64,000 nt of DNA from Candidatus Krumholzibacteriia bacterium (GCA_029865265.1 JAOUHG010000017.1:1-64000), one strand, 5' to 3'; positions 27,485 through 59,833 are shown, counted from the stretch's first letter. Numbers and translations: made by a program. Notes: generated by a model from the letters alone, not told the origin.

Positions 27485-27485
27485 C

Positions 27486-32611: not shown

Positions 32612-32676
32612 CCGGGGTTCTTTCCCCTGTCAGACGGCCGTGTGGCGCGTGACGGCGCGTGGCCGAGGAGTGTGAG

Positions 32677-33171: not shown

Positions 33172-33174
33172 ACG

Positions 33175-33723
33175 ATGGTCCTTTCCGGAGTCGGCAAACG
33201 CTACGCGGTGGCGCTGTTCAATGCGGCCAGGGCGGAGGACGTGCTGGACCAGGTCTACGGCGACGCGGTCAGCTTTGCGAGGGTGCTCAAGGCGGAGCGT
33301 TCGTTCAAGCGCTTCCTGGAGTCTCTGCAGGCCACGTCGGACGAGAAGAAGGACCTCGTGGTCAAGGTCATCGGCGACCGCGCGTCCGGCCTCTTCGTCA
33401 AGTTCGTGCTGCTCCTGATCGACAAGAAGCGCATGGCGAACTACGCGGAGATCGAGAAGGCGTTCGAGGCGTTGTACGACGAGGAGCGCGGCATCGTGGA
33501 GGTGGCGCTGGTGACCGCCGTTCCGCTGGACCTCGAACTGGAGCGCAAGGCCAAGGCCACCATCGAGAAGCGCACGGGCAAGACGGCCAAGATTGTCAAG
33601 CGCGTGGACCCCGGCGTGATCGGCGGCGTGATCATGATTGCGGGCGACCAGATCATCGACGGCAGCATCCGCAACCATCTCGCGGAGATGCGGCAGGAGC
33701 TGCTCGCGTTGCGGGTACGTTAG
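33175..33723 (+). CDS. atpH: F0F1 ATP synthase subunit delta (OSCP)
   Basis: Position in the operon and an OSCP-like sequence (YAVALFNAA...[60 protein letters not shown]). Confidence 0.85.
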
Positions 33724-33757
33724 AGACACATCGAATAGAATACCGAGGAGTGAGAGC

Positions 33758-35284
<1,527 letters not shown>

Positions 35285-35293
35285 CGCAATCCA

Positions 35294-36205: not shown

Positions 36206-36213
36206 CACCCTGA

Positions 36214-37653
<1,440 letters not shown>

Positions 37654-37671
37654 GCGGAGAGGAACCGACGT

Positions 37672-37947
37672 ATGGTCACGCAACCCAAGTTCAGCTTCAA
37701 GGTGCTCACCCCCAACCGCAAGGCGTTCGACGGCGACGTCGTGTCGATCGTCGCCCCGGGCGGTGCGGGCTACCTGGGCGTGCTCGCCAACCACGCGCCG
37801 CTCATTACAACGGTGCAGACCGGCGAGCTCACCGTGAAGCTCCCCGACAACCGCGTGAGCCACTACACGGTGGGACGCGGCTTGTTGAAAGTTGCCAACA
37901 ACCAGGTGGTCCTCTTGACGGAATCGGTGGAGGAAACGAAGGGGTAG
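37672..37947 (+). CDS. atpC: F0F1 ATP synthase subunit epsilon, short form (91 aa; β-sandwich only, no C-terminal helical hairpin)
   Basis: N-terminal domain similarity (FKVLTPNRKAFDGDVVSIVAPGGAGYLGVLANHAPLIT). The stop follows immediately and is succeeded by a strong terminator. Confidence 0.85.
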   Translation: MVTQPKFSFKVLTPNRKAFDGDVVSIVAPGGAGYLGVLANHAPLITTVQTGELTVKLPDNRVSHYTVGRGLLKVANNQVVLLTESVEETKG

Positions 37948-42091: not shown

Positions 42092-43023
42092 AGCGCGCCG
42101 CAGGCGCACCGCGCATCGCGGTGCTCGACATCGGCACCAACTCCATGAAGCTGCTGGTGGCCACCAGCGACGGCCGCCACGTGCGCCCGATCCACTTCGC
42201 ACGTGTCACCACCCGCCTCGGTACCGGCCTGCACAAAAACGGGCGCATCTCGCCCGCGGCCACGGCACGCGCGGTGGATGCGGCCCGCAAGCTCGTCGCC
42301 GAGGCGCGGCGAAACGGCGCCACGCATGTGGTCGCAGTGGGAACCTACGCATTTCGCGCGGCGGAGAACGGCGCCCGGGTGGCGAAGAAGATCGAACGCG
42401 CCACCGGCGTCGGGGTGCACATCCTCTCCGGCCGCGAGGAGGCGCGCATGGCCTTCCTCTCAGCACGCTCGCACATGGAACGCGCGCCGGCGTCGGCGTT
42501 GATGCTCGATGTGGGGGGCGGGTCGGCGCAGCTCGTGGCCGCGCGCGGCACCACCATCGTGGGCGTCACCTCGCTGCCGCTGGGCGCGCTGCGGTTGACC
42601 GAGCGCTTTCTTCACCACGACCCCATCGAGCCCGGCGAGTACCTGCAAATGAAACGCACCATCGAGCGTGCGGTTCATCCGGTGATTGCGAAGCACGCGC
42701 TCCGTGCGCCGCGCGCGGTCTTCATGGCCGTGGGCGGCTCCGCCACCACCGCGCTGGCCATGGCGCGGCACGATGCGAGCGGGCGTCTGTGGCAGGGAAG
42801 CATGACGCTGGCCGAACTGCGTCAACTGGAACGGGCATGTCTGGGCAAGACCATCGCGGCACGAAAGCGCATGCCGGGGCTTCCTGCCGACCGCGCAGAC
42901 ATCATCCCCGCCGGCATTGCTGTGGTCCTCGCCGTCATGGGCGCGGCGCACAAGCGCGTGGCGCACATCACCGGCGGCGGCGTGCGCGAGGGCGTGGTGC
43001 TGACTATGGCGCGGGAGAATTGA
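42088..43023 (+). CDS. Ppx/GppA-family phosphatase (exopolyphosphatase / guanosine pentaphosphate phosphohydrolase, ASKHA fold)
   Basis: IAVLDIGTNSMKLLVA...VVAVGTYAFRAAENG...LMLDVGGGSAQLV are the Ppx/GppA N-domain motifs. ATGA overlap with the upstream stop. Confidence 0.8.
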   Translation: MKRAAGAPRIAVLDIGTNSMKLLVATSDGRHVRPIHFARVTTRLGTGLHKNGRISPAATARAVDAARKLVAEARRNGATHVVAVGTYAFRAAENGARVAKKIERATGVGVHILSGREEARMAFLSARSHMERAPASALMLDVGGGSAQLVAARGTTIVGVTSLPLGALRLTERFLHHDPIEPGEYLQMKRTIERAVHPVIAKHALRAPRAVFMAVGGSATTALAMARHDASGRLWQGSMTLAELRQLERACLGKTIAARKRMPGLPADRADIIPAGIAVVLAVMGAAHKRVAHITGGGVREGVVLTMAREN

Positions 43024-43756
43024 GCCAGCGCGCGATGGCCGCGCCGAACAGCGTCCACGGGATGACGTCCGGCGGCGCCGCGGCCAGCTCAACCGTCTCT
43101 CCCCCCACCGGGTGCGGAAAGCGCAGGCGCGCGGCGTGCAGCGCGATGGCGCGTTCCGGCAACGGCTCGGGCGCGCGGTACTTCAGGTCCCCCAGCAGCG
43201 GAAATCCTGCCGCCGAGAATTGCAGCCGGATCTGGTGGTGCCGCCCCGTGCGCGGGTTGATCTCCACCAGCGATACCATCCGCGCCGGCGCCTTGCGGCG
43301 GCGATCGCGCGTCGGCAACGTCAACTCGGAGCGAGCCAGCACGCGGTATTCGAGCGACGCCTCGCGGGCGCGCGGGCCGTCCGCAGCGGCCATGCGCGAG
43401 CGGGTGTGCGTGCGCTCGATGAAACCACTCAACTCGCCGGTGTCGTCCGGCATCGATCCCACCACCACCGCAAGGTAGCACTTCTCCACCACCCGGTCGT
43501 GAAACGCGCGCGCCAGGCGCGACGCCGCCTTGGAGGTGCGCGCAAATACCATTACGCCGGACACCGGCCGGTCGATGCGGTGCACCAGCCCCAGGTACAC
43601 GTCGCCGGGCTTGGCGTAGCGCTCCTTGATGTACGCGCGCGCCTGCGCCAGCGCGGTCGGGTCGCCCGTGCGGTCGCCCTGGGCCAGCAGGCCCGCCGGT
43701 TTGAGGACGCCGAGCAGGTGGTTGTCTTCGAGGAGGACCTGGATGTGTTGCGTCAT
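43004..43756 (-). CDS. RluA-family pseudouridine synthase
   Basis: HRIDRPVSGVMVFARTSKAA catalytic-Asp motif and ...GDLKYRA... C-region. ATG 43756 (MTQHIQVLLEDNHLLGVLKP). Confidence 0.8.
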   Translation of the reverse strand: MTQHIQVLLEDNHLLGVLKPAGLLAQGDRTGDPTALAQARAYIKERYAKPGDVYLGLVHRIDRPVSGVMVFARTSKAASRLARAFHDRVVEKCYLAVVVGSMPDDTGELSGFIERTHTRSRMAAADGPRAREASLEYRVLARSELTLPTRDRRRKAPARMVSLVEINPRTGRHHQIRLQFSAAGFPLLGDLKYRAPEPLPERAIALHAARLRFPHPVGGETVELAAAPPDVIPWTLFGAAIARWLNSPAP

Positions 43757-43806
43757 GGGTTCCCGGGAATGGGCCCCGGCGCCCGCCGGGAGCCACCCGG
43801 CCTCGC

Positions 43807-43836
43807 TTGACCGCCCATGCCCGCTCCACCTATACT
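43807..43836 (+). promoter_or_regulatory. σ70-type promoter candidate (TTGACC-18-TATACT) upstream of the ABC/arc operon
   Basis: cgcTTGACCgcccatgcccgctccaccTATACTcccc about 30 nt upstream of the ABC ATPase ATG. Confidence 0.4.
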
Positions 43837-43868
43837 CCCCAGATTGCCCACACGAGCAAGTGCAAATC

Positions 43869-44795
43869 ATGATAGAAGTTAGCAGTCTAACCAAATCCTA
43901 CGGCAAAGTCGAGGCCGTGCGCGGCGTCTCCTTCCGGGTGGCCCCCGGCGAGGTCTACGGCCTGCTGGGCCCCAACGGGGCCGGCAAGTCCACCATTATC
44001 GGCATCCTCTCCGGCCTGGTGCTGCCTTCCTCGGGCGAGGCGCGCATCGGCGGGCACGACGTGGTGCGCGATTCGCTGGCCGCCAAGCGCATCCTCGGCG
44101 TGGTGCCGCAGCAGTCCATCGTGATCGAAGAGCTGAGCGCCCTCGCCAACTGCATGTTCTTTGGTTCCCTCTATAATGTGGAGGCGCGCGTGCTCAAGGA
44201 GCGCTCCCGCGAACTGCTGGACTGGATGGAACTGTCCGACCACGCCGGCAAGCCGGCGGGCACGTTTTCCGGCGGCATGCTGCGTCGGCTCACGCTCGTG
44301 CTGGGCATCCTGCACGAACCCGGGGCGCTGATTCTCGACGAACCCACCACCGGGCTGGATCCCCAGACACGCCTGCTCCTGCTGGAACGGATACGCGATA
44401 TCGCCGGCAAGGGCACGGCGGTGCTCATGAGCACGCACCACCTGGAGGAGGCCGAGCGCCTGTGCAGGCGGGTGGGCATCATCGACGAGGGACGCATCAT
44501 CAAGGAAGGCACGCTGGAGAGCCTGCGCGCGGAGGTCTCCGACGTGCAGCTGTTCAGCCTGCGCGGCACCTTCGACCGCGCGCGCCTGCGCGGCGTGGTC
44601 GCAACCCTCGCCGGCGCGGAGATCCTGCTGGACGAGGCGGACGAGGCTGTGGTGGCGGTGCCCAGCGGGAGCGCACACGCATCGCGCCTGATCGAGCTGG
44701 CCGCCTCTCTCGAACAGGTCAACGAGGTCGCCATCAAGCCCCCCTCGCTCGAGAGTCTTTTTATCCGGCTCACCGGGCGTGAGCTCCGGGAGTGA
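43869..44795 (+). CDS. ABC transporter ATP-binding protein (ABC-2/CcmA-like exporter ATPase)
   Basis: Walker [10 protein letters not shown], signature FSGGMLRRL, Walker [13 protein letters not shown]-loop. ATG 43869 ([12 protein letters not shown]). Confidence 0.9.
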
Positions 44796-44799
44796 TTCG

Positions 44800-46050
44800 A
44801 TGATCCAGTATCGCGTGGACTCCGAAGTCGGGAAGCTTCGCAAGGTCCTCGTGCATCGCCCCGATCTGAGCCTGCGCCGCCTGACCCCGTCTAACTGCGA
44901 GGAACTGCTCTTCGACGACGTGCTGTGGGTGCGCAAGGCCCGCGGCGAGCACGACAAGTTCGTGGGCCACCTGGAGCGGCGCGGCGTGGAGGTGTACTAC
45001 CTCGACGACCTGCTCGCCGAGGTGCTGCGCATTCCGGAAGCACGTTCGTTCGTGATCGACAAGACCGTCACCCGCCTCACCGTGGGTGCCGCACTGGTGA
45101 AGGACTTCCGCGCCTACCTGATGGAACTGGATCCCCGGCGCCTCTCCGCCATCCTCATCGGCGGGCTGGCGCGCGTGGAGATCGACGACAGCTTCCTGCG
45201 CAAGCACTCGCTCACCCTGGCCACCATGGACCCGTTCGACTTCGTGCTGCCGCCGCTGCCCAACTCCATCTTCACGCGCGACGCTTCGTCGTGGATCTAC
45301 AACGGCGTATCCCTCAACCCCATGTACTTCGAGGCGCGCCAGCTGGAAGTGGTGCACGTGGCCGCCATCTACAACTGGCACCCGATGTTCGCCGACGCCG
45401 ACTTCGAGTTCTGGTTCCCCGACCAGGACGAGCAGGGCCGCTTCATCCAGGAGGACTGGGGCCGCGCGTCGCTGGAGGGCGGCGACGTGATGCCCATCGG
45501 CAACAAGACGGTGCTGGTGGGGATCGGCGAGCGCACCACCGCGCAGATGGTGGAGCGGCTGGCGCAGTCGATGTTCCGCTACGAAGCCGCCGAACGCATC
45601 ATCGCCTGCCAGATGTCCAAGGATCGCGCGCACATGCACCTGGACACCATCTTCACCATGGTGGACCGCGACGCGGTGACACTCTACCCCAAGGTGAGCG
45701 ACAAGATCCGCGCCTTCAGCCTGCGCCCGGGCGACAAACCCGGCCAGCTGGACGTCACCGTGGAGAAGAACTTCCTGGAAGCGGTCGCCGACGCACTCAA
45801 GGTAAAGAAACTGCGCGTGATCGGCACCGGCGGCGACGAGTACCAGGCGGAACGGGAGCAGTGGGACGACGGCAACAACCTGGTGGCCATCGAACCCGGC
45901 GTGGTGGTGGCCTACTCCAAGAACGAATACACCAACAAACGCCTTCGCAAGGCGGGCATCAAGGTGCTCACCATCGACGGCTCGGAACTGGGACGCGGTC
46001 GCGGCGGCGGTCATTGCATGACCTGTCCCCTGCTGCGCGATCCCATCTGA
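44800..46050 (+). CDS. arcA: arginine deiminase
   Basis: Full-length ADI similarity: [29 protein letters not shown], catalytic Cys in [23 protein letters not shown] before ATG 44800. Confidence 0.95.
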
Positions 46051-46064
46051 TTGCGGAGAACAAC

Positions 46065-47069
46065 ATGGGCAACATCGACCTCAAGAACCGGCACTTCCTC
46101 AAGGACCTCGATTTCTCGAAGGAGGAACTGCTCTACCTGCTCGACCTGTCGAAGGCGCTCAAGCAGGAGAAGAAGGCGCGGCGAGAGATGCAGCGCCTCA
46201 AGGGGCGCAACATCGCGCTTATCTTCGAGAAGACCTCCACGCGCACGCGTTGCGCGTTCGAGGTGGCAGCCTTCGACCAGGGCGCGCACGTCACCTACCT
46301 GGGGCCCTCCGGCACCCAGATCGGCCACAAGGAGACCATGAAGGACACCGCGCGCGTGCTGGGGCGCATGTACGACGCCATCGAGTACCGCGGCTTCGCG
46401 CAGACCACGGTGGAAACACTGGCCGAGTTCGCCGGGGTGCCGGTGTACAACGGCCTCACCGACGAGTTCCACCCCACCCAGGTACTGGCCGACGTGCTCA
46501 CCATGGTGGAGCACTGCGACAAGCCCATCGAGCAGATTTCTTTCTGTTATCTGGGCGACGCGCGCAACAACATGGGCAACTCGCTCATGGCCGGCGCCGC
46601 CATCCTGGGCATGGATGTGCGGCTGGCCGCACCCCGCTCCTGCTGGCCGGAGGAAGCGCTGGTGCAGCGGTGCCGGGCCATCGCCGAAAAGAGCGGCGCG
46701 CGCATCCTGCGCACCGAAGACGTGGCCGCGGGGGTCAAGGGCGTTGACTTCCTGTACACCGACGTATGGGTTTCCATGGGCGAGCCCGAATCGAAATGGG
46801 CGGAGCGCATCCAGGTGATGAAGCCCTACCAGGTGAACCGGCGCGTGCTCGATCTCACCGGCAACCCCGAGGTGAAGTTCCTGCACTGCCTGCCGGCCTT
46901 CCACAACCGCGACACCAGGGTGGGCGAGTCGATCTACCAGCAGCACGGCCTGGACGGACTGGAAGTCACCGAGGACGTGTTCGAATCGAAACACTCAATC
47001 GTGTTCGACCAGTCCGAGAACCGCCTCCACACGATCAAAGCAGTGATGGTTGCCACCATCGGCGAGTAA
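46065..47069 (+). CDS. arcB: ornithine carbamoyltransferase (catabolic, ADI pathway context)
   Basis: STRTR carbamoyl-phosphate motif, HCLP, full-length OTC similarity. GGAGAA RBS. The track shows it as the 3' part of a fused 714-aa ORF. Confidence 0.9.
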
Positions 47070-47072
47070 GTC

Positions 47073-47981
47073 ATGCCGCGCCGCCGCATCGTCATCGCAC
47101 TCGGAGGCAACGCCCTGCTCAAGCGGGGCGAGCCGCTCACCGTTGCCAACCAGCGCGCCAACGTGCGCGCGGCGGCGCTGGCCATCGCGCCCATCACCGA
47201 CGGCAACGACATCGTGATTTCGCATGGCAACGGTCCGCAGGTGGGCATGCTGGCGCTGCAGGCCGCGCACTCCGATTCGGGCACGCCGCTCGACGTGCTC
47301 GGCGCCGAGACCGAGGGCATGATCGGTTACATGATCGAACAGGAACTCGGCAACTGCGTGCCCTTCGAGCGCCCCCTCGCCACCATGCTCACCATGGTGG
47401 AGGTGGACCCGGACGACCCCGCATTCCAGAACCCGACCAAGCCCATCGGACCCATGTACACCGAGGCGGAGGCGAAGCAGCTCGCCGAGCAGAAGGGATG
47501 GACGGTGGCCGCGGATGGAACCGGCTGGCGGCGCGTGGTGCCGTCTCCGCTGCCCAAGAGAATCTTCGAGATCCGCCCCATCAAGTGGCTGATCGAGAAG
47601 CAGACCATCGTGATCTGCGCCGGCGGCGGCGGCATCCCCACCATGTACCGGGGCGAGACCCTGGTGGGCGCGGAGGTGGTCATCGACAAGGACCGCGCCA
47701 GCGCGGTGCTGGCGCGGGAAGTGAACGCGGATCTACTGGTGCTGGCCACCGACGTGGCCGGCGTCTTCGCGGACTGGGGCACGGCGAATCACCGGCTGAT
47801 CCGGCACGCCACGCCCGCGCAACTGCGTGAACAGCGCTTCGGCGCCGGCTCCATGGGACCCAAGGTGGAGGCGGCCATTGCCTTCGTCAAGGAAACCGGC
47901 AAACGCGCGGCCATCGGGTCGCTGGAAGAAATCGGGCAGATCGTCGCGGGTGAGGCCGGGACGATCATCGAACGCTCGTAA
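47073..47981 (+). CDS. arcC: carbamate kinase
   Basis: [16 protein letters not shown]...[11 protein letters not shown]...GGGIP matches carbamate kinase throughout. Confidence 0.9.
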
Positions 47982-47993
47982 GGCCCTGGGACG

Positions 47994-49199
47994 ATGCACT
48001 TCCTGCGCATGTACTGGCGGCGCACGCTGCGCAAACCGGGCTCGATCCTCCTGTGGCTCGCCGTTCCCTTCGTGTTCATGGGCATCTACCAGCTCGCGTT
48101 CGGAAACGACGGGGGCACGCCGCGCATCGGGATTGCCATCGTGGATCAGGACAGTTCGCTGGTGAGCGGGCTGGTGCAGAGCGCATTCGACCGCGGCCCG
48201 GTGGGCGACATCATCACCACCATCCCCGCCGCGAACCTCGCCGAAGTCGAGGCACGCTTCGCAGCCGGTGATGCCTCGGCGGCTCTCGTTATTCCCGCCG
48301 GCTTCGGCGACCGCCTGCTGCGCATGGAGCCGGACACGCTGCGTCTGCTGCGCAATCCGCGCCACGCCATCGGACCCCAGGTGGCGGAGGGCGTGGTGGG
48401 CACGCTCATCACCGTCGCCAACGGCGCGCTGGGACAATTCGCCGCCCCCATGGGAACGGTGCGCGGCCTGCTGGAGGGCGGAGAGCCTCCGACGGGAGAC
48501 GAGGTCGGCGCCGTATCGCAGCAGTTCTACGCCGCCAGCCGCAACGTCACCGGTTTCGGCGCGTTGCAGAACGTCGACGTCACCGTCGTCGACGACGCGG
48601 GCGCAACCGACGATTTCAACATGGCGGCGCTCTTTTTTCCCGGGCTGGTGATGTTCGGACTGCTCACCGTCTCGCTTCGCCTCGAGCACGCGTTTCTCAT
48701 GGATCGCCGCAACCACGTGACGCGCCGCTTTGTCACCGCGCCGGTGTCGCCGTGGCGGGTGGCACTGGAACAGCGTCTGTATACGGCGTCGTTCGCCTAC
48801 GTGGTGGGCATCGTGGCGGGAACCCTGGGCGGCATCATCTGGCGCATCCCCCCGCACGGCCTCTTCACCGCCAACCTGGTGGTTGCGGCGCTGGCCCTGT
48901 TCATCGCCGGCATCAACGGCATCATCTTCTCGCTCAACGACTCGCCGCGCGCGGTGGGCGCCATCAGTTCGCTGGTCATGATCTTTCTCACCATTCTGGG
49001 CGGCGGTTTCTTTCCGGCCGAGTTTACGCCCGGGACCTTCAAGGCCATCGCAGCCTGGATTCCCACCGGAACCGCCAACCTGGCCCTGACGCGTGCGCTG
49101 ACCGGGCGGGAGATCGGCGTGTCGCTGCCGTTGTACGCGCTGACCTGCGTGGCCTTCTTCAGCGCCGGTGTCCTGTCCGGCCGACGGAGGATCATCTAG
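47994..49199 (+). CDS. ABC-2 family transporter permease
   Basis: N-terminal TM, large extracytoplasmic loop, then 5 C-terminal TM helices: the typical ABC-2 permease topology. Confidence 0.75.
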   Translation: MHFLRMYWRRTLRKPGSILLWLAVPFVFMGIYQLAFGNDGGTPRIGIAIVDQDSSLVSGLVQSAFDRGPVGDIITTIPAANLAEVEARFAAGDASAALVIPAGFGDRLLRMEPDTLRLLRNPRHAIGPQVAEGVVGTLITVANGALGQFAAPMGTVRGLLEGGEPPTGDEVGAVSQQFYAASRNVTGFGALQNVDVTVVDDAGATDDFNMAALFFPGLVMFGLLTVSLRLEHAFLMDRRNHVTRRFVTAPVSPWRVALEQRLYTASFAYVVGIVAGTLGGIIWRIPPHGLFTANLVVAALALFIAGINGIIFSLNDSPRAVGAISSLVMIFLTILGGGFFPAEFTPGTFKAIAAWIPTGTANLALTRALTGREIGVSLPLYALTCVAFFSAGVLSGRRRII

Positions 49200-50315
49200 A
49201 TGCGCCCCGCGTGGTGGACCATCGCCCGGCTGGAGCTCACGCTCGCCATCCGCGACCGCGGCTCGGTGATCTGGTCGTTGATCGCGCCCATTGTCATGGC
49301 GTGGATATTCGGCTCCATGTTCGGCGGCAACGCGGACGCCCCCGCGCCGACGCGCGCGGCCCTCGATGGCGGCGCCAATCCCCCCGCGGTGGTATCGTTC
49401 GTGGCCGGCGTGCTCGGCGCACACGGCGTGGTGGTCGACTCGGCGGGCGCGGTACGGGTGGAGCTCCCCGACAGTCTGCTCGCGAAGCTGCGCGACGGCC
49501 AGGCCGCCACCGCCCGTATCCACAAGGGCGACGCCAGCGACCTGCGCGCGCAATCCGTGGGCGCCAACGTGCGCGACGCCCTGTACCGCATGGCCTTCGA
49601 GCGCCGCACCATCGAAACGGCGGTCCGGGAAGGGCGCACGCGGGTGTCGCCGGCGGGTGACACGCCGCTCGCGCTGAAGATGGAGACGCTGGGCGCGGCG
49701 CCCCGGATCCCGACGGGTTCCGAGCACACCCTCCCGGCCATGCTGGTGATGTTCATCATGTTCCAGCTCACCACCTTCTTCCTGGGGATGTGGGTGGAGG
49801 ATCTCAGGAGCGGAAAAACACGGCGCATCACCATGAGTCCCACGCGCACGCGCGACATCCTCTTCGCCCAGATCGTGGCGCGGCTGGCGTGGGGCACCCT
49901 GCAGGTGGCCATCATTCTCGGCCTGGGGTCGATGATCCTCGGCGTGCACCTGGAGGCCGCGCCACTCCCGCTCGCCGCGTTGATCGGCGCGTACATGCTT
50001 GCGGCGGCGTCGCTGGGGATGCTGCTGGCCTCGTTCTTCAAGTCCCCGGAGAAGGCCGGCGCCATCGGCGTGATCGTTTCGCTGGTGATGGCCGCACTGG
50101 GCGGTTGCTGGTGGCCGCTGGAGATGGTGCCCGACGCCATGCGCCGGGTGGCGCTGGTGTTCCCCACCGGCCAGGCCATGGACGCGCTGGGAGAGATGAC
50201 CGCACTGGGCACCGCCGCGCCGTTTCCGCTGTCAAACGTGGTGGTGCTGCTGGCGATGGCGTCTATCATGATGCCCTTCGCCACGCGCCGCATGCGCATT
50301 CAGATGACCAGCTGA
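49200..50315 (+). CDS. ABC-2 family transporter permease (second subunit)
   Basis: Same topology as the preceding gene. Its start abuts the previous stop. Confidence 0.75.
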   Translation: MRPAWWTIARLELTLAIRDRGSVIWSLIAPIVMAWIFGSMFGGNADAPAPTRAALDGGANPPAVVSFVAGVLGAHGVVVDSAGAVRVELPDSLLAKLRDGQAATARIHKGDASDLRAQSVGANVRDALYRMAFERRTIETAVREGRTRVSPAGDTPLALKMETLGAAPRIPTGSEHTLPAMLVMFIMFQLTTFFLGMWVEDLRSGKTRRITMSPTRTRDILFAQIVARLAWGTLQVAIILGLGSMILGVHLEAAPLPLAALIGAYMLAAASLGMLLASFFKSPEKAGAIGVIVSLVMAALGGCWWPLEMVPDAMRRVALVFPTGQAMDALGEMTALGTAAPFPLSNVVVLLAMASIMMPFATRRMRIQMTS

Positions 50316-50336
50316 TGTTGGTGGAAGGAGATTCCC

Positions 50337-51986
50337 GTGAAGACGTCCGATCTCGCACTCATTGCGGCGGCGGCCATCGCAGCCGCGCTGTCCATTGCCA
50401 CCGCCGCAAATACCGGCATGTCCGAAGCGCGCATGCGCGAGCACATCCGCTACCTCGCCTCCGATGAGCTCGGCGGCCGCGCACCCGGTTCGCGGGGCGA
50501 GGATCTCGCCGTGACCTACCTCACCGAGCAGTTGAAGGCGGTGGGTTGCGCACCCGGCAACCCGGACGGCAGCTTCACGCAGACGGTCCCACTGTACGGC
50601 TTCACCGTGACCAACGCCCCCACCCTCACCGTGAACCGCATGGACGGAGGGTCGAGGGAGTTTGCATCCGGCAGCGAGTTCGTCGGATGGACGATGCGCC
50701 AGACCACCTCCAGCGCGGTCGAGGACGCGGAACTGGTCTTCGTCGGCTACGGCGTGGACGCACCCGAGTACAACTGGAACGACTACCGGGACACCGAGGT
50801 GGCCGGGAAGATCGTGGTGATCCTGGTCAACGACCCGCCGCTCGAGGACGCGTCGATGTTCGGCGGGCGCGCCATGACCTACTACGGACGCTGGACCTAC
50901 AAGTACGAGGCGGCGGCGGAGAAGGGCGCGCTGGGTGCGATCATCGTGCACAACACGCAGGACGCGGGCTACCCCTGGGCGGTGGTGGAGAACAGCTGGT
51001 CGGGCGAACAGTTCGACGTGGTGCGCGCGGACGAGGGTGCCGGCCGTTGCGCGCTGGAGTCGTGGATCACCGAGGACGCGGCGCGCGAACTGTTTGCGAT
51101 GGCGGACCGCGACTTCGACGCCGAGAAAGCCGCGGCGGCGACGGCGACGTTCCGGGCGTACCCGCTGGGCCTGCGCGCATCGGCCCGCATCGAGAACGCG
51201 GCGCACACCATCGAGTCGCGCAACGCCGTGGCGCGGGTGGAAGGGTCCGATCCGGTGCTGCGAAACGAGATCGTCGTCTTTACCGCCCACTGGGATCATC
51301 TGGGCATCGGCAAGCCGGCCGACGGGGATTCCATCTACAACGGCGCCCTCGACAACGCCACCGGTGTCTCCGGCGTAATGGAAATCGCCGCGCGCTTTGC
51401 GGAGGAAAAGAAGTCGTTGAAGCGCAGCGCCCTGTTTGTCTTCACCACCGGCGAGGAGAGCGGCCTGCTGGGCGCCACGCACTACGTGGAGAATCCGCTG
51501 TATCCACTGACGCACACCGTCGCCGTGATCAATGTGGATGGACTCAACGTGTGGGGTCGCACGAGCGACATGGTGGTGGTGGGGTACGGCCAGTCGGACC
51601 TCGACCAGCTGCTGCGCGACGTGATCGCCGCCATGGACCGCACCATCGCACCCGACAGCGAACCCGAGAAGGGTTACTACTACCGTTCCGACCACTTCCC
51701 CTTCGCCCGCGCCGGCGTGCCCGCGCTGTACGCGGACAGCGGTGTGGAGTTCCGGGAGCGGCCGCAGGGCTGGGGAATGGAGCGCCGGCGCGAGTACGTG
51801 GCCCAGCGCTACCACAAACCGCAGGACGAATACTCCGAAGCGTGGGACCTGTCCGGTGCGCTGGAGGACATGGAGGCGCTGTTCCAGGTGGGTTACACGC
51901 TGGCCTCAACCGACCGTGTGGCGCAGTGGAGCGAGAAGAGCGAATTCCGCCGCGTGCGCGAAGACATGATGCGCGGCTCCAAGTAA
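50337..51986 (+). CDS. secreted M28-family zinc aminopeptidase (with PA-like insert)
   Basis: GGAAGGAGA RBS then GTG 50337. Signal peptide MKTSDLALIAAAAIAAALSIATAA. M28 zinc-ligand blocks (AHWDHLG, NGALDNATG, TGEESGLLG). Confidence 0.85.
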   Translation: MKTSDLALIAAAAIAAALSIATAANTGMSEARMREHIRYLASDELGGRAPGSRGEDLAVTYLTEQLKAVGCAPGNPDGSFTQTVPLYGFTVTNAPTLTVNRMDGGSREFASGSEFVGWTMRQTTSSAVEDAELVFVGYGVDAPEYNWNDYRDTEVAGKIVVILVNDPPLEDASMFGGRAMTYYGRWTYKYEAAAEKGALGAIIVHNTQDAGYPWAVVENSWSGEQFDVVRADEGAGRCALESWITEDAARELFAMADRDFDAEKAAAATATFRAYPLGLRASARIENAAHTIESRNAVARVEGSDPVLRNEIVVFTAHWDHLGIGKPADGDSIYNGALDNATGVSGVMEIAARFAEEKKSLKRSALFVFTTGEESGLLGATHYVENPLYPLTHTVAVINVDGLNVWGRTSDMVVVGYGQSDLDQLLRDVIAAMDRTIAPDSEPEKGYYYRSDHFPFARAGVPALYADSGVEFRERPQGWGMERRREYVAQRYHKPQDEYSEAWDLSGALEDMEALFQVGYTLASTDRVAQWSEKSEFRRVREDMMRGSK

Positions 51987-52094
51987 CCGGGAGGGTGTGA
52001 CGTCACTTCGCGGCGAGTTCCGCAGCGCGACTGCCAGATGGAGTTCTGTCGCGCGAGGACTGTCTGAGCAAGCGAAGAGACGTCGCGCCCGACC

Positions 52095-52931
52095 CTACTG
52101 CGTATCGCGCAGCGCCTGCTCGCCCGCGGTGAGTTTGGCTTCCGCGGCTTCGTAGCCCGCCTTGACCGCCTCGTCCATGCGGTTGTAGTCCTCGATCTTG
52201 AGGTCCGGATCGAGCGGCGGGCGGATGAGTACCTCCGGCGGATTCAACGACAGGCGCATCGACGTCACTGGGCCCTGCGGAATGTCGATGGACTTCATCA
52301 GCATCTCAAAAATCAGCGGACGCTTGCCGCGCTTGAGCGGCGTGCGCACCTTCTCCCACAACGACCGCTCGTCCTCGAACACCAGCCGGCGGTCCGCCGG
52401 CGCCGAGGTATCCACCGCCACCACCGGCGCCAGCGTCATGCTGCGAATCACGTCCACCGGCAGGTTGTTGAGCAGGCTCCCGTCGATGAGCACCCGCCCC
52501 ACGTGTTTCACGGCGGCGAAAATTCCGGGCAGCGCGCTGGTGGCGCGCAGCGCGGGCAGCAGTTTGCCCTGGTTGAGGACCACCAGGCGGCCGCGCTGCA
52601 CGTCCACGGCCGTAACCGCCAGCGGAATCTTGAGGTCCTCGAAGTTCTGCGGCAGGTGCTTCTCCAGGTGGCGGGTCACCCCCTTGCCGCCGATGAGCCC
52701 GCCCATGCTGCTGCGGTCCAGCAGGCCCATGAGATCGAGCCCGCCGAACATCTCTTCGATCTGCGCCGCCTTGAACCCGGCCGCGTGCAGCGCGCCGATG
52801 ATGCCGCCCATGGAACAGCCGGCGATGGCCTGCACGCGCAGACCGCGCTCTTCGATGGAGCGAAGCACGCCGATGTGCGCATAGCCGCGCGCACCGCCGC
52901 CGCCGAGCACCAGACCCACCCTGACCGCCAT
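52095..52931 (-). CDS. patatin-like phospholipase
   Basis: GGGARGYAHIGVL oxyanion motif, GCSMGG (GxSxG) nucleophile, DGS catalytic Asp (LIDGSLLNN). Confidence 0.9.
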   Translation of the reverse strand: MAVRVGLVLGGGGARGYAHIGVLRSIEERGLRVQAIAGCSMGGIIGALHAAGFKAAQIEEMFGGLDLMGLLDRSSMGGLIGGKGVTRHLEKHLPQNFEDLKIPLAVTAVDVQRGRLVVLNQGKLLPALRATSALPGIFAAVKHVGRVLIDGSLLNNLPVDVIRSMTLAPVVAVDTSAPADRRLVFEDERSLWEKVRTPLKRGKRPLIFEMLMKSIDIPQGPVTSMRLSLNPPEVLIRPPLDPDLKIEDYNRMDEAVKAGYEAAEAKLTAGEQALRDTQ

Positions 52932-53042
52932 GAAGACCTCCGTGTTTCGCGGCGGTGATTATTCGCGCTCCCGCCGCCCGCTGTCAACGAGTGATGCGCG
53001 CGGCCTTGACCCGTTTCCGGCCGGCGGATAGTATCGGCGGCG

Positions 53043-53585
53043 ATGCGTGCCCTGTTCCTGCCGATGCTGCTCCTCCTGCTCACCGCCTGCGCCACGGTGC
53101 AGTACAGCCACGACTGGGACGTGACGGCCGATTTCGGCCGCTACCGCACCTACGCGTGGATGCCAGCACCCCCCGACAGCACCCCGGCGAACGCCGATGC
53201 CGCACGCGCCGGCGGCACCCTGATCGAACGCCGCGTGCGCGCGGCGGTGGACGCCGCCATGCTGGCGCACGGGTTCAGCGCCGACGAAGACCACCCCGAC
53301 GTGCGGGTGGCGTATCACACCGGTCTCAAGGACAAGATGAACATCACCGACTGGGGCTACCCGTACGCCGGCAACTACTGGGGATGGGAGGGTCGTGACG
53401 TCGACGTGGAGAACTACACCGAGGGAACCCTGGTGGTCGACCTGCTCGACGCGGACTCGCACGACCTGGTGTGGCGCGGCATGGCCAGCGGCGAAATCCA
53501 CCCCCGCAGCACGCCGCAGGAACGCGACCATGCCATGAAGCAGATCGTCGCGAAGATGTTCGAAGAATACCCACCGAAGCGCTGA
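53043..53585 (+). CDS. DUF4136-family lipoprotein
   Basis: Lipobox LLLLTAC; ~180 aa. NITDWGYPYAGNYWGWEG...LVVDLLDADSHDLVWRG is typical of DUF4136. Confidence 0.7.
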   Translation: MRALFLPMLLLLLTACATVQYSHDWDVTADFGRYRTYAWMPAPPDSTPANADAARAGGTLIERRVRAAVDAAMLAHGFSADEDHPDVRVAYHTGLKDKMNITDWGYPYAGNYWGWEGRDVDVENYTEGTLVVDLLDADSHDLVWRGMASGEIHPRSTPQERDHAMKQIVAKMFEEYPPKR

Positions 53586-53596
53586 CCCGCCCGCGG

Positions 53597-55102
53597 CTAG
53601 CGCGCGGCCGCGAAGTCCAGCCCCAGCACCCAGCGCGTCCACGTGTAGGTGAACAGCGTCACCAGCACGATCCCGATCCAGTCCACCACCCAGCCCGCGC
53701 GCATCATGTCGCGCGCGGTGACACGGTGCGTCCCGTAGACGATGGTGTTGGGCGGTGTCGCCACCGGCAGCATGAAACCGCACGAGGCGGCGAGGGTCGC
53801 GGGCAGCATGAGCAGGAGCGGGTGCATGCCCTTGGCGGTCGCCAGCGCCGCCAGCACGGGCAACGAAACCTGCGCCAGCGCGGTGTTGGACGCCAGCTCG
53901 CCCAGAAAGCAGATGCCCGCCACCAGCAGGAAGATCATCAACAGCGGCGGCACGCCCGCGAGCCCCCCCAGGCTCGCACCCAGGTAGTCCGACAGGCCGG
54001 AGCGCTGGAACGCGTCGGCGAGCGCAAAACCGCCGCCGAACAGGATCACCACGTCCCACGGCAGCTTGCCGAACGCGCTCGCATCCAGAATCGGTCCCGG
54101 CCGCGAGCGCGCCGGCACCATGAACAGCAGGATGGCCACGCCCACCGCCACCACACCGTCCCCCACCCGCCCCGCGAAGCCGCCCCGCGATGCCCAGCCG
54201 CGCACGGTCGTGTCGCCCAGGGTGAGGTCCGCGCGCGTGACCACCAGCGCCACGAACACGAAGAACAGCACCATCACGACGCGTTGCTCGAACGGCATCC
54301 GTCCCAGCCCGGCGTAGTCGCGGCGCAGCAACCCGCGATTGACCACCACCGCACAGCCGCGCAACGCCGTGGCACGGAAGTACAGGAACAGCAGCACGAA
54401 CATCACCACCGACACCGGCGCCGCCATCAGCATCCACGACAGGAAGGTCACCGGCGTCACCCCGGGGGCGGCCATGGCGTACACGCGCGAGAAGACCAGG
54501 TTGGGCGGGGTGCCGATGAGCGTGGCCATGCCACCCACCGACGCCGCGTAGGCAGCGCCCAGCAGCATGGCCCGGGTGAGTCCCTGCGCGGCGGCGCGGT
54601 CCTCGTGTTCAACACTTCCCACCAGGGAGAGGATGATGGGGATCATGATCAACATGGACGCCGTATTCGACACCCACCACGAGATCATCCAGGTGACACC
54701 CATCACGCCCAGCAGGATCATCGCCGGGCTCTTGCCGATCCACACCAGGATGCGCAACGCGATGCGGCGGTCCAGCCCGGTGGTCTGCATCCCGATGGCC
54801 AGCATGAAGCCACCCAGGAACAGGAAGATGATGTCGTTCATGTAGGCGGCGGCAACCTGGCCCGCGCTGGCGAACGCAAACAGGGGCAGCAGCACCACCG
54901 GGAACAGCGCGGTGACGGCCAGCGGCACCGCCTCGGTGAGCCAGTACATCGCCATCAATACCGCGACCGCCAGGGTCCGCCCCACCTCCGGGCGCTCCGG
55001 CACCGGATTGACACCCACCAGCACCAGCACGAACAACACCAGGCCCAGCAGGAGCGCCAGAATGCGCATCCGCGGCCACCAGCGGGAACGGTCAGCTACC
55101 AT
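53597..55102 (-). CDS. DASS/SLC13-family anion:sodium symporter (divalent anion/dicarboxylate/sulfate)
   Basis: Polytopic membrane protein with the duplicated hairpin motifs of the family (MATLIGTPPNLVF and LPVATPPNTIVYG). Confidence 0.8.
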   Translation of the reverse strand: MVADRSRWWPRMRILALLLGLVLFVLVLVGVNPVPERPEVGRTLAVAVLMAMYWLTEAVPLAVTALFPVVLLPLFAFASAGQVAAAYMNDIIFLFLGGFMLAIGMQTTGLDRRIALRILVWIGKSPAMILLGVMGVTWMISWWVSNTASMLIMIPIILSLVGSVEHEDRAAAQGLTRAMLLGAAYAASVGGMATLIGTPPNLVFSRVYAMAAPGVTPVTFLSWMLMAAPVSVVMFVLLFLYFRATALRGCAVVVNRGLLRRDYAGLGRMPFEQRVVMVLFFVFVALVVTRADLTLGDTTVRGWASRGGFAGRVGDGVVAVGVAILLFMVPARSRPGPILDASAFGKLPWDVVILFGGGFALADAFQRSGLSDYLGASLGGLAGVPPLLMIFLLVAGICFLGELASNTALAQVSLPVLAALATAKGMHPLLLMLPATLAASCGFMLPVATPPNTIVYGTHRVTARDMMRAGWVVDWIGIVLVTLFTYTWTRWVLGLDFAAAR

Positions 55103-55753
55103 CTACACTCCGTCGTAGCCACGCCACAGGTAGAGTGTGCCCACCGTCCGGTACGGGCGCCAGGCCTCCGCGATCCGCTCCAGGCGACCCGGCTTCGTGC
55201 CCCGGCGCAGGCGGTAGCGCGACGCCATCGCCTTGCGCAGACCCAGGTCGCCCACCGGAAAGACATCCAGACGGTTGAGCGCAAAGATGAGAAACATGTG
55301 TGCCGACCAGTCCCCCACGCCCTTGATCGCCGTCAGGCGGGCGATCACCTGTTCGTCACTCATGCGGGCAAACGTACGCAGCGTGACGCGATTGCGGGAG
55401 AAGTCCTCGGCGACGTTGCGCACGTACACCGCCTTGGAACGCGACAACCCGCACGCAATCAGTTCCTGCGGCGAAAGCGCCAGGATACCCGCCGGGCCCG
55501 GCCGTCCGCCCCCCAGGGCCGCGGCGAGGCGCGCGTAGATGGAGCGTGCGGCGTGGGTGGAGAGCTGCTGCGAAACGATCGTCTCCAGCATGACCTGGAA
55601 CGCGTTGGTGGTGGCGTGCAGATCGTAGGTGCCAAAGCGCTGCACCAGATCCGCCACCACCGGATCGCTTGCCCGCAGGTGTGCGGCCGCGCGCCGCATT
55701 TCGCGGTCGAGCCCCGCCTGCCGTGAAGAACTGCGCCGGTCGAGCCATGCCAT
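55103..55753 (-). CDS. HhH-GPD DNA glycosylase (AlkA / 3-methyladenine glycosylase II-like)
   Basis: Helix-hairpin-helix LTAIKGVGDWSAHMFLIFAL followed by the catalytic-Asp loop VFPVGDLGLRKAM. Start ATG near 55753 (MAWLDRR). Confidence 0.75.
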   Translation of the reverse strand: MAWLDRRSSSRQAGLDREMRRAAAHLRASDPVVADLVQRFGTYDLHATTNAFQVMLETIVSQQLSTHAARSIYARLAAALGGGRPGPAGILALSPQELIACGLSRSKAVYVRNVAEDFSRNRVTLRTFARMSDEQVIARLTAIKGVGDWSAHMFLIFALNRLDVFPVGDLGLRKAMASRYRLRRGTKPGRLERIAEAWRPYRTVGTLYLWRGYDGV

Positions 55754-55857
55754 GCCGCAATCATATCCGCACGGCGCGCGCCGGGAAAGGGGATGCTTCG
55801 CCGGAAGTTCCATTGAAGCGACGGGCCGGTTCTGCTAGCGTGGGTGCCGGAAGGCCT

Positions 55858-57099
55858 ATGAGCGCGCCCGACGAACACACCATCATCCACGAGTGGAACC
55901 CGCGCCCCGCGGCGCCTCCCTACCCGCTCAAGCTGAACGACGAGACCCTGCGCGACGGCCTGCAGTCGCCGTCGGTGTTCAATCCCGCCATCGCCGACAA
56001 GCTCGAGATTCTGCACTTCATGGAGGATCTGGGGCTCTACTCCGCCGCCATCGGCCTGCCCGCCGCCGGACCCCGCGCGTTCGAGGACGTGCTGGCCATC
56101 GCGGGCGAGATCGCGCGGGCGCGGCTCAAGATCTACCCGTACTGCGCGGCGCGCACGCACCAGAACGACATCCTCCCCATCATCGACATCCAGCAGAAGA
56201 CCGGCATCAAGGTGCAGGCGGCGCTGTTCATCTTCTCCAGCCCCATCCGCCAGCTCGCGGAGGACTGGACCGTGGACAAGCTGCTCAAGGTGAGCGAGGC
56301 GGCCATCGAGTTTGCGCACAAGAACGAGGTGCCGGTGATGTACGTCACCGAGGACACCACGCGCGCCCAGCCCGAAACCCTGGAGCGTCTCTACCAGATG
56401 GCGATCGACATGAACGTGGAGCGCCTGTGCATCTCCGACACCGTGGGCCATGCCACGCCGGGTGGCGCCGAGACCCTGGTGCGGTTCGTGCGCTCCCTCG
56501 TCACGCGTTCCGGCAAGGACATCGGGGTGGACTGGCACGGGCACCGCGACCGCGACCTGGCGGTGGCCAACGCGATGGCGGCGTTCTACGCCGGCGCGGA
56601 CCGCATCCACGGATCCATGCTCGGGATCGGCGAGCGGGTGGGCAACGCACCCATCGATTCGCTCATGGTGAATTTCAAACTGATGGGCGTGTTCGATCAG
56701 GATCTCACCCGGCTCCCCGCCTACGCGCGCAAGGTATCCGACGCGTGCCGGGTGCCCATCCCCGACAACTATCCCATTCTGGGCAAGGATGCCTTCCGCA
56801 CCCAGACCGGCGTGCATGCCGACGCCATCGTCAAGGCCTACAAGAAGGGTGACGCGTGGCTGGCCAACCGGATATACAGCGGGGTTCCGGCCGACGAGGT
56901 CGGCCTCGCACAGGTCATCGAAGTGGGGCCGATGAGCGGGAAGTCCAACGTGCGCTACTGGCTGGAATCACGCGGCATCGAAGCCACCGACGCGATGGTG
57001 GATCGCATTTTCGAGCGCGCCAAGCAGGTCGACTACATTCTCCCTGATGGGGAGATTATCGAGATCGTCGAGAAGATCCGGGGCGGGGCGGCGCGCTGA
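55858..57099 (+). CDS. HMGL-like DRE-TIM metallolyase (2-isopropylmalate / homocitrate / citramalate synthase family), short form without LeuA C-terminal regulatory domain
   Basis: LRDGLQ substrate/metal motif, HGHRDRDLAVANAMAAFYAGADRIHGSMLGIGERVGNAPID (HxH metal ligands). GGAAGG RBS before ATG 55858. Confidence 0.75.
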   Translation: MSAPDEHTIIHEWNPRPAAPPYPLKLNDETLRDGLQSPSVFNPAIADKLEILHFMEDLGLYSAAIGLPAAGPRAFEDVLAIAGEIARARLKIYPYCAARTHQNDILPIIDIQQKTGIKVQAALFIFSSPIRQLAEDWTVDKLLKVSEAAIEFAHKNEVPVMYVTEDTTRAQPETLERLYQMAIDMNVERLCISDTVGHATPGGAETLVRFVRSLVTRSGKDIGVDWHGHRDRDLAVANAMAAFYAGADRIHGSMLGIGERVGNAPIDSLMVNFKLMGVFDQDLTRLPAYARKVSDACRVPIPDNYPILGKDAFRTQTGVHADAIVKAYKKGDAWLANRIYSGVPADEVGLAQVIEVGPMSGKSNVRYWLESRGIEATDAMVDRIFERAKQVDYILPDGEIIEIVEKIRGGAAR

Positions 57100-57790: not shown

Positions 57791-58155
57791 AGCTATTGTC
57801 TCGACCTCCGCGTCTGACCCGCTGGTTCGTACTGCCGGGCCGCGCTGCTGCACAAAACGTTGTTGCACTGTCGCGAAGGGACGCGGCCCGGGGCCGCGAC
57901 GAACTGCTCCTTCCCCCGCAGAAACGCGCATGAGTATAGCACAAATCGGCCCTGACATGAAGCGGGGGATGCGGGTGGCGTGGGGCCCGACGATCTACTT
58001 GATTAATTGACAGGGGCTTGCCCGGCCCGGTGTGGGTCCGGGCGGCGGGGGGCTTTGTGGTTTTCCACCGGCACGCCCGGTGCTACACTGCCCCTCGTTG
58101 CCGCCCCTGCCATGCTTCGCCCCGCGCGGCCGGACCGCGCCAAGGAGGACTCTCG

Positions 58156-59826
58156 ATGCAGCGCAATCTCCGACTTGCCCTTCTCACAGCCCTGTTGCTC
58201 GCCGGTGCTGCCGGCTGCGGCGGGGGCGGTGACCACGCGGATGGCAACGGCGGCGATTCCACCTTGGCGGTCCACACCGGTTCGGGCCCGCGGCCGGGCG
58301 GCACCGTGATCCGGCGCCTCGAGTCGGAGTGCAAGACGCTCAACTGGGTGCTGTACACGACGGCGTACGAGAACTTCGTCCTGCGCCACATCTACGACCC
58401 CGTCATCGACTACGACGAGAACGGCGACCTGGTGCCGGTGCTGGCGGCCGCGCTTCCCGAAGTGAGCGCGGACCACCTGCGCGTCACCATCCGGTTGCGC
58501 AAGGACATCCACTGGCAGGACGGCGTGCCGATTACGTCGCGCGACGTAAAGTTCGCACTCAGCAAGATCCAGGACCCCAGCGTGCCGGCGCTCAACAAGC
58601 TGGCCTACTTCGAGAAACTGGACCGCCTGGAGACGCCGGACGACCACACGCTGGTGTTCGTGTGGAAGGAACCGTTTGCGCCGGGCATGTACGCCCTCAC
58701 CCAGCTGTGGCCCATCCCCGAGCACATCTACGGCAAGGGTGACTTTCTCACCAACCCCGCCAACCGCAAGCCGGTGGGCAGCGGGCCCTTCATGCTCGAC
58801 GAGTGGCGCTCGGGCCAGTACATCAGCCTGAAGCGCTACGACGACTACCACGGCAAGAAGGCCTACCTGGATCGCATCATCTTCAAGGTGGTCGAGGACG
58901 ACGCGGTCGCACTCAACATGCTCAAGACGGGGGAACTCGACGAGATGCGCGTCACCCAGCTGCAGTGGGAGAAGCAGACCGTCTCTCCCGAGTTCACGGC
59001 CGGCTTCAACAAGTACCAGTACTACTTCCCGCAGTACAACTTCATCACCTACAACTGCCGCACGGTGTGGTTCTCCGATCCGCGCGTGCGTCTGGCGATG
59101 ACGTTCCTGTTCGACCGCGAGAGCATCAACAACAAGATCTACTCGGGCTATGCACGGCTGGTGAGCGGGCCCTTCTACATCAACTCGTGGGCCTACGACA
59201 AGACGGTGAAACCGCACCCCTTCGACCCCCAACGCGCGCGCGAACTGCTCGACGAGGCCGGATGGACGGACAGCAACGGCGACGGCGTCCGCGACAAGAA
59301 CGGCAAGAAGTTCGAGTTCGAGCTGGGCATCGCCCACGGCAGCAACACGGCGGCACAGTTTGCACAACTGCTGCAGGAGGAGTGCGGCAAGTCGGGCATC
59401 CGCGTGAACATCCGGCAGATCGAGGGCTCCACGTTCTTCGACCGTATCGATAAGGGCGAGTTCGACGCGTGTACGCTGGGGTGGACGCTGGACCTCGACC
59501 CCGACGTCTATGACACCTTCCACTCCAGCAAGGTCCCGCCCAACGGGCTCAATCAGGGCGCGTACTCCAACGCCTCGGTGGACAGCCTGCTCGTGGCCGG
59601 ACGCACCGAATTCGACCAGAGCAAGCGTGCCGCCATCTACCACCGCGTGCACCGGATCATGCACCAGGATCCGCCCTACACCTTCATCAACGCGGTGCCG
59701 GAAAAGCGGCCCATCGCCAGGCGCATCCAGGGCGTCATGATTTCACCCAAGGGGCCCTACGACTTCTGGCCGGGGGCGAACTACTGGTGGGTCGACGAGG
59801 GCGCCGCCAGCGTCGCGTCCGACTGA
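58156..59826 (+). CDS. ABC transporter substrate-binding lipoprotein, family 5 (DppA/OppA/NikA-like)
   Basis: AAGGAGG RBS, lipobox LLLAGAAGC, full-length SBP_bac_5 similarity (...GSGPFMLDEWRSGQYISLKRYDDY...). Confidence 0.85.
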   Translation: MQRNLRLALLTALLLAGAAGCGGGGDHADGNGGDSTLAVHTGSGPRPGGTVIRRLESECKTLNWVLYTTAYENFVLRHIYDPVIDYDENGDLVPVLAAALPEVSADHLRVTIRLRKDIHWQDGVPITSRDVKFALSKIQDPSVPALNKLAYFEKLDRLETPDDHTLVFVWKEPFAPGMYALTQLWPIPEHIYGKGDFLTNPANRKPVGSGPFMLDEWRSGQYISLKRYDDYHGKKAYLDRIIFKVVEDDAVALNMLKTGELDEMRVTQLQWEKQTVSPEFTAGFNKYQYYFPQYNFITYNCRTVWFSDPRVRLAMTFLFDRESINNKIYSGYARLVSGPFYINSWAYDKTVKPHPFDPQRARELLDEAGWTDSNGDGVRDKNGKKFEFELGIAHGSNTAAQFAQLLQEECGKSGIRVNIRQIEGSTFFDRIDKGEFDACTLGWTLDLDPDVYDTFHSSKVPPNGLNQGAYSNASVDSLLVAGRTEFDQSKRAAIYHRVHRIMHQDPPYTFINAVPEKRPIARRIQGVMISPKGPYDFWPGANYWWVDEGAASVASD

Positions 59827-59833
59827 TGACGAG

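Follow-up and report, generated by a model that had tools for sequence, protein, structure and literature searches.

An arginine deiminase cassette nested in an older, predicted ABC-2 exporter operon of Krumholzibacteria, between its ATPase and permease genes

Introduction

Does a transporter whose genes enclose a catabolic pathway serve that pathway? The question is raised by a 64,000-nucleotide stretch of DNA from a Candidatus Krumholzibacteriia bacterium (GCA_029865265.1, JAOUHG010000017.1:1-64000; hereafter the window), in which the arcA, arcB and arcC genes of the arginine deiminase (ADI) pathway stand between the ATPase gene and the two permease genes of a predicted ABC-2 exporter, with a gene for an M28 peptidase following. 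The ADI pathway converts arginine to citrulline and then to ornithine and carbamoyl phosphate, and yields one ATP per arginine. The exchange of arginine for ornithine by the antiporter ArcD costs no ATP, and an ArcD of the APC type or the DcuC/YfcC type is frequent, though not obligatory, in ADI clusters. An earlier note on this DNA saw no ArcD and proposed either a non-canonical solution to arginine import and ornithine export by the ABC-2 system, or a module that leads from peptides through arginine to ATP.

The transporter probably does not serve the ADI pathway. Comparison with relatives leads us to consider it likely that a standard ADI cassette was inserted once, rides on the promoter of an older exporter/peptidase operon, and leaves the exporter with an arc-independent role. 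On this reading an arcA-arcB-arcC cassette entered at the junction of the ATPase and permease 1 genes in the ancestor of one Krumholzibacteria sub-clade, where the host operon already existed and was conserved; it encodes an exported M28 aminopeptidase together with a predicted heterodimeric exporter of the ABC-2 type (type V). The cassette has since been inherited vertically, and would be transcribed from the sigma-70-type promoter of the host operon as part of a seven-gene unit. Its enzymes would turn cytoplasmic arginine into ornithine, NH3 and CO2 with the gain of one ATP. The exporter and the M28 peptidase would retain their older, arc-independent job, and their tie to the arc genes would be co-expression by hitch-hiking.

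Organization of the locus

Seven same-strand genes lie tightly packed at positions 43869-51986 (+) of the window, which is GC-rich (about 67%). They encode, in order, an ABC transporter ATP-binding subunit (43869-44795, 308 aa), ArcA (arginine deiminase, 44800-46050, 416 aa), ArcB (ornithine carbamoyltransferase, OTC, 46065-47069, 334 aa, with the start ATG at 46065 read from the sequence), ArcC (carbamate kinase, 47073-47981, 302 aa), ABC-2 permease 1 (47994-49199, 401 aa), ABC-2 permease 2 (49200-50315, 371 aa) and an M28 metallopeptidase with a PA domain (50337-51986, 549 aa). This order had been given in the earlier note and was confirmed by Pfam and NCBIfam matches, coordinates and strand. 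The gaps between the seven genes measured 4, 14, 3, 12, 0 and 21 nt, with the start codon of permease 2 directly abutting the stop codon of permease 1. The tight same-strand run described in the note was found again, but with seven genes rather than eight and with gaps of 0-21 nt rather than 4-22 bp. Upstream of the run lies a divergent RluA-like pseudouridine synthase gene on the minus strand, and downstream of it a convergent patatin gene. A (+) open reading frame (ORF) at 43112-43810 was considered as an eighth operon gene and rejected; it has no family match, and the true gene there is the minus-strand pseudouridine synthase.

The layout recurs in at least ten independently assembled species-level genomes, and the arrangement is therefore not a product of chance or an assembly artefact. 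An assembly chimera was likewise ruled out by the identical layout in independent assemblies from several projects. The layout was described nowhere in the literature that we found on Krumholzibacteria and arginine, or on ADI, arcD and ABC transporters.

Identity of the arc enzymes

ArcA matched Pfam ADI (8.7e-125) and the NCBIfam arginine deiminase model (556 bits, cut-off 414), and aligned end to end with the Pseudomonas aeruginosa ADI 1RXX (E 1.6e-137). In this alignment it keeps the FTRD, EGGDVMP, HLDT and GGGHCMTCP motifs, which are assigned to catalysis in the P. aeruginosa enzyme. ArcB carries both OTCase domains (Pfam OTCace_N and OTCace) and scored 535.6 bits with NCBIfam OTC NF003286 (cut-off 515). 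ArcC matched Pfam AA_kinase and scored 457.5 bits with NCBIfam carbamate kinase NF009008 (cut-off 361) and 392.3 bits with TIGR00746 arcC (cut-off 358). Because all three proteins clear the curated thresholds and ArcA retains its catalytic motifs, the identities of the enzymes are secure as sequence assignments. The best reading of arcABC is a conventional ADI pathway cassette with predicted activity.

The cassette resembles the arcDABC operon of P. aeruginosa in its three enzymes, in the order arcA-arcB-arcC and in the inferred chemistry. However, neither the cluster nor the rest of the window holds an arcD gene, and the cassette lacks its own promoter region. Its genes are housed inside another operon, beginning 4 nt after the ABC ATPase gene and ending 12 nt before a permease gene.

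History of the insertion

Relatives of permease 2 were collected and their contigs were examined, one genome per GTDB species was scanned, and the window proteins were mapped onto all loci (numbered with an L prefix) by tblastn. The arc genes lay exactly between the ATPase and permease 1 genes in the window and in nine other loci (L001, L002, L006, L008, L009, L010, L013, L017 and L085). The incomplete contigs L005, L007 and L012 agreed with this layout as far as they reach.

Seven distinct loci from relatives with the same flanks (L003/L004, L015, L016, L018, L088, L089 and L090) showed no arc genes at the locus. In these the ATPase, permease 1, permease 2 and M28 genes are contiguous, with the contig of L015 stopping at permease 2. 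The order shared among relatives is histidine kinase, PMT-TPR, Ppx, RluA (-), ATPase, permease 1, permease 2 and M28. Beyond Krumholzibacteria, we examined loci from Acidobacteriota, Verrucomicrobiota, Planctomycetota and other phyla. The distance from the ATPase to permease 2 was 1124-1718 nt in all 56 of the loci that hold both genes (56/56), which leaves room for permease 1 only, and no arc gene stood between them. As the module is contiguous in the arc-less relatives, and its transporter genes also in these 56 loci, the transporter is older than the arc genes and not tied to them; its link with M28 is older than them too. The claim that the arc genes split an ABC-2 system was therefore borne out as a true insertion, and the synteny comparison that had been suggested as a check points to an older ATPase-permease-permease-M28 operon into which arcABC came later.

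In a neighbour-joining (NJ) tree of the ATPase, permease 1 and permease 2, the ten arc-bearing loci were monophyletic and nested within the arc-less relatives, with support from 200/200 bootstraps. As the arc-bearing genomes form one clade among arc-less relatives, arcABC entered once, and the simplest history is a single old insertion into a pre-existing operon followed by vertical inheritance. The junction between the ATPase and arcA is conserved: the gap is 4-7 nt long, and its sequence is TTCG(ATG) in four relatives as well as in the window, with small variants in the others. Identity to the window ArcA was 75-96% within the clade and fell to 64-69% in the next relatives, which belong to Gemmatimonadota, Chloroflexota and other groups. 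This gap in identity, together with the many ArcA matches that apparently fall on the same contigs as permease matches, places arcA at this locus throughout the clade.

A recent horizontal transfer or mobile element was also considered and rejected. The GC content at third codon positions (GC3) of the arc genes is the same as that of the flanking genes, no flanking repeats or mobile-element scars beyond chance were found around the arc insert, the synonymous divergence (dS) of the arc genes is similar to that of the flanks, and the junctions are conserved. The ratio of nonsynonymous to synonymous divergence (dN/dS) was 0.05-0.26 over all seven genes and 0.05-0.10 for arcA. All seven genes are under purifying selection, and the pathway and the exporter consequently both appear to have been kept in working order side by side.

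The ATPase-to-permease-1 spacer of some arc-less relatives is 95-280 nt long (L088 5697-5792; L089 5512-5792), and in others it is 1-17 nt. A spacer of the L088/L089 type could have been the landing site of the arc cassette. Since then the L002/L085 lineage seems to have lost arcB, and the L011-L013 lineage the M28 gene. In the former, arcC directly follows arcA and the locus has no arcB (L002 6602-8771, gap 7 nt; L085 8001-10149, gap 4 nt), so that the pathway must either draw on an OTC encoded elsewhere or be incomplete. On two long contigs, at L001 5588-7863 and L002 5670-6594, the arcA sequence falls into three frames, and those of arcB and the ATPase gene into two each. Identity to the window proteins is 87-96% for the pieces of the arc genes and 67-74% for those of the ATPase gene. 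Since the pieces stay so highly conserved, the frameshifts probably reflect indels from long-read assembly rather than decay or pseudogenes.

The ABC-2 exporter

The ATPase, described as DrrA/ABCA-like with a C-terminal regulatory domain, matched Pfam ABC_tran PF00005 (1.1e-26). Its best NCBIfam match was the drrA subfamily at 269.9 bits; as this is below the cut-off of 312, the protein is classed from its sequence as a relative of DrrA and not as a DrrA equivalog. The nearest solved structures were the nucleotide-binding domains (NBDs) of ABCA7, ABCA4 and ABCA1, and 4YER. Permease 1 matched Pfam ABC2_membrane_3 (8.1e-24), and permease 2 matched both ABC2_membrane_3 (4.5e-26) and ABC2_membrane (7.4e-21). 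Hydropathy profiles gave about six transmembrane (TM) segments for both permeases, one of them at the N-terminus and the other five after a large outer loop; in permease 1 the extracytoplasmic loop after TM1 spans about 170 aa. A protein 100% identical to permease 2 is annotated as Candidatus Krumholzibacteria. No homologues of the permeases with a solved structure were detectable by sequence, and hence there was no clue to a substrate from that side. Among the permease 2 homologues, one protein of 510 aa on a 13.8-kb contig (P0115) is about 140 aa longer than all others, and the extra length may come from a fusion or a mis-called start.

The ATPase and permeases are predicted to form a heterodimeric ABC-2 (type V) exporter. 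They share with exporters of the DrrAB, ABCA-like and YbhFSR-NatAB types an NBD closest to the drrA subfamily and ABCA domains, and two ABC2_membrane_3 permeases without a binding protein; the relatives of the window likewise place the ATPase gene first and the permease genes after it. The difference is that in this clade 3.2 kb of unrelated catabolic genes part the ATPase from the permeases. The contiguity of these genes, which is broken in the window by arcABC, is an organisational and not a functional feature.

Could this system have been recruited in place of ArcD, for the export of ornithine or citrulline or the import of arginine? The window encodes no ArcD-type carrier, arcABC has stayed packed between the transporter genes in all of the species-level genomes counted above, and every component is under purifying selection, all of which speaks for such a role. 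However, the operon contains no gene for a solute-binding protein (SBP), which together with the exporter-type DrrA/ABCA-like ATPase makes import unlikely. The orthologous transporter also occurs without arc genes in sister lineages and in other phyla, and no specific association between transporter and arc genes was found across genomes: in 65 of the 66 other-phyla loci there was no arc-like gene nearby, and the lone exception was a 36% identical OTC-like match on the opposite strand.

Nor did the transporter sequence shift when the arc genes were acquired. The arc-bearing stem branch (0.093) showed no acceleration and lay within the range of other internal branches, and 81 columns of permease 2 were invariant across arc-bearing and arc-less orthologues. 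In addition, by established bioenergetics an ATP-driven transport step would use up the single ATP of the pathway, and arcD is likewise missing beside the arc genes in the nearest ADI clusters outside the clade. We regard recruitment of the ABC-2 system as very unlikely, and the replacement of ArcD by this system is not supported. With a transporter that predates the arc genes, an exporter-type NBD and no binding protein, the non-canonical import/export solution of the earlier note found no support. The locus instead resembles the case that the note itself had set against that proposal, in which the ABC-2 system is an unrelated exporter.

ArcD and the supply of arginine

Pfam scans of all plausible ORFs found no transporter of the APC family (AA_permease) or the DcuC/YfcC family in the window, so that the reported absence of an ArcD antiporter from the operon extends to the entire 64 kb. 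No ArcD-type carrier was present within about 10 kb in related loci. The only other transporters in the window were a DASS/CitMHS carrier (53597-55102, -), an Opp-like importer set of SBP, B and C proteins (58003-61890) and an F1Fo ATPase. The DASS/CitMHS carrier was considered as a hidden ArcD and rejected as arc-specific, because arc-less relatives have it in the same neighbourhood.

The closest ArcA and ArcB proteins outside the clade (65-69% identity) come from ADI clusters of other environmental bacteria in which arcD is likewise not adjacent to arcA and arcB. Examples are L086, in Gemmatimonadota, which consists of arcAB only, and L087, which has all three arc genes and, at a distance of 5 kb, a carrier of the DcuC family (ArcD-like). 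A cluster without arcD is therefore not unusual in these lineages. In contrast to the window, these clusters are free-standing, with upstream intergenic regions of their own, and are not nested in a transporter operon.

Arginine would most plausibly come from oligopeptides, imported by Opp/Dpp-type systems and cut by intracellular peptidases, or through a carrier encoded elsewhere. In the window the Opp/Dpp-like SBP, OppB and OppC genes (58003-61890, +) are not followed by ATPase genes, and the next gene is a minus-strand Fpg glycosylase; the ATPases of this importer must therefore be encoded elsewhere.

The M28 peptidase

The last protein of the operon matched Pfam Peptidase_M28 PF04389 (8.1e-44, 150 bits, cut-off 21.3) and PA (8.3e-06). 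The motifs HWDH, DNATG, GEESGL, NVDG and YHKPQD (H...D) are visible in its translation; these are usual in the family and presumably hold the co-catalytic metal ligands. Its N-terminus is hydrophobic and resembles a signal peptide in hydropathy, as in five orthologues. The protein is weakly similar to Vibrio leucyl aminopeptidase and Bacillus subtilis YwaD (E 7e-09 and weaker). It shares with the Vibrio proteolyticus enzyme and YwaD an M28 catalytic domain, a PA domain and an export signal, but the similarity is distant, and the gene of the window protein differs in its conserved place at the end of an ABC-2 operon.

As the earlier note had observed, the window also encodes a Dpp-like importer and, at c. 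16.3-19.3 kb and 26878-30480, two peptidases of the M1 family. These are real, and with the exported M28 they make peptide degradation a reasonable lifestyle for the host. A dedicated module, in which the exported M28 peptidase frees N-terminal arginine for the ADI enzymes and the operon is selected as a unit, would be in keeping with this neighbourhood. It would also fit the co-orientation of the M28 gene 21 nt after permease 2, the signal-peptide-like N-terminus, and the weak resemblance to YwaD, a protein whose PDB entry carries an Arg/Lys/Leu preference in its name.

However, the link between M28 and the ABC-2 genes is present in the arc-less loci L003, L016, L018 and L088-L090 and is hence older than the insertion. 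The M28 gene is missing after permease 2 in an arc-bearing lineage, where a DUF4136 lipoprotein gene follows permease 2 directly (L011 1191-1727, L012 3439-3912, L013 11263-11736). Arginine freed outside the cell would need an importer, of which the operon encodes none, and the specificity of the M28 peptidase is not readable from its sequence. We judge such a module unlikely; what would be left of the proposed route from peptide through arginine to ATP is at most opportunistic co-expression.

Promoter and transcription

A sigma-70 consensus scan of positions 43000-52600 gave a single promoter-like match, TTGACC-N18-TATACT at 43807-43836 (+), about 33 nt 5' of the start codon of the ATPase. 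A match in a single sequence is on its own at chance level (0.8 expected). However, TTGAC-N17/18-(C)TATACT is kept at the same position 5' of the ATPase in an alignment of 10 arc-bearing and 3 arc-less loci. The two hexamers are thus conserved in position while the sequence around them varies between loci, as would be expected of a genuine promoter. No terminator-like site was found in any intergenic gap on the + strand, and no Rfam element or riboswitch matched at E <= 0.1 in 42500-52800. No ANR/ArgR-type site stood out in the 58-nt upstream region when read by eye, although no dedicated search was made. The 5' leader before the ATPase start (43837-43871), CAAGTGCAAATCATG, is nearly invariant in arc-bearing relatives, and no Shine-Dalgarno sequence is obvious in it.

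The conserved promoter motif, the gaps of 0-21 nt and the lack of intergenic terminator-like sites lead us to infer one transcript of seven genes from an ancestral promoter upstream of the ATPase. Transcription as separate units would place promoters for arcABC and/or the permeases inside upstream coding sequence, and the nesting would then have no regulatory meaning. What speaks for this is the nature of the scan, which detects sigma-70 consensus sites only and whose matches are at chance level, in a group whose promoters are uncharacterised. However, the short gaps leave no intergenic room, no terminator-like site interrupts them on the + strand, and no promoter motif other than that preceding the ATPase gene is conserved. 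Moreover, since the permeases depend on the ATPase, transcription of the ancestral unit must have run across this junction. Separate transcription is in our view distinctly unlikely.

Discussion

Several points weigh against a cassette that simply hitch-hikes on the host operon. The proposed co-transcription is drawn from gene spacing and promoter conservation, and promoters within coding sequence may exist. No arginine/ornithine carrier was identified in the window that would account for substrate entry and the fate of ornithine. The arrangement has outlasted a deep divergence, in which permease identity falls to about 51%, and selection for co-expression could be the cause, although the surrounding gene order is equally conserved in the arc-less relatives. 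The exporter may also have a secondary link to arginine metabolism.

After its capture the nested cassette might have become functional in one of two ways. The exporter could have been co-opted to rid the cell of ornithine, citrulline or a polyamine as an end product of the ADI pathway; alternatively, the ATP-yielding fermentation could be deliberately co-expressed with the ATP-consuming exporter and peptidase, to keep export powered when anoxia limits energy. If true, either form would be a new way to run the ADI pathway without ArcD, but we consider this very improbable.

With hitch-hiking on the older operon preferred, the layout is real, conserved and slightly odd, and its explanation is ordinary. 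It is an evolutionary curiosity, nothing points to a new arginine transport system, and a claim of a new solution to arginine/ornithine transport would need experiments. The assignment of a predicted ATP-yielding arginine fermentation to an uncultured Krumholzibacteria sub-clade aids the metabolic reconstruction of these soil and sediment bacteria. The locus is also a clean, datable case of a catabolic cassette that entered a transporter operon between its ATPase and permease genes and has long been kept there with neither function disabled. It calls for caution in annotation by guilt by association, as the tight packing here would be a product of history (promoter hitch-hiking) and no sign that the genes share a pathway.

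Neighbouring genes

Downstream of the M28 gene, the arc-less loci L088-L090 are compact (9800-11800), with M28, an HhH-GPD glycosylase (-), a hypothetical gene (-) and an Opp SBP. Relative to this layout the window has four added genes at 52095-57099, namely the patatin gene, a DUF4136 gene, the DASS/CitMHS carrier gene and an HMGL-like gene, which indicates that the region took up several insertions.

About 6 kb upstream of the seven-gene run lies a complete F1Fo ATP synthase operon (30780-37947, +), which includes a small AtpZ/I-like gene. Its synteny with the region of the histidine kinase and ABC-2 genes extends to the arc-less loci L003 and L088. At the start of the window (399-13643, -), four consecutive genes encode surface-type proteins with DUF11 repeats of about 1320, 1990, 900 and 230 aa, one of which has an OmpA domain.

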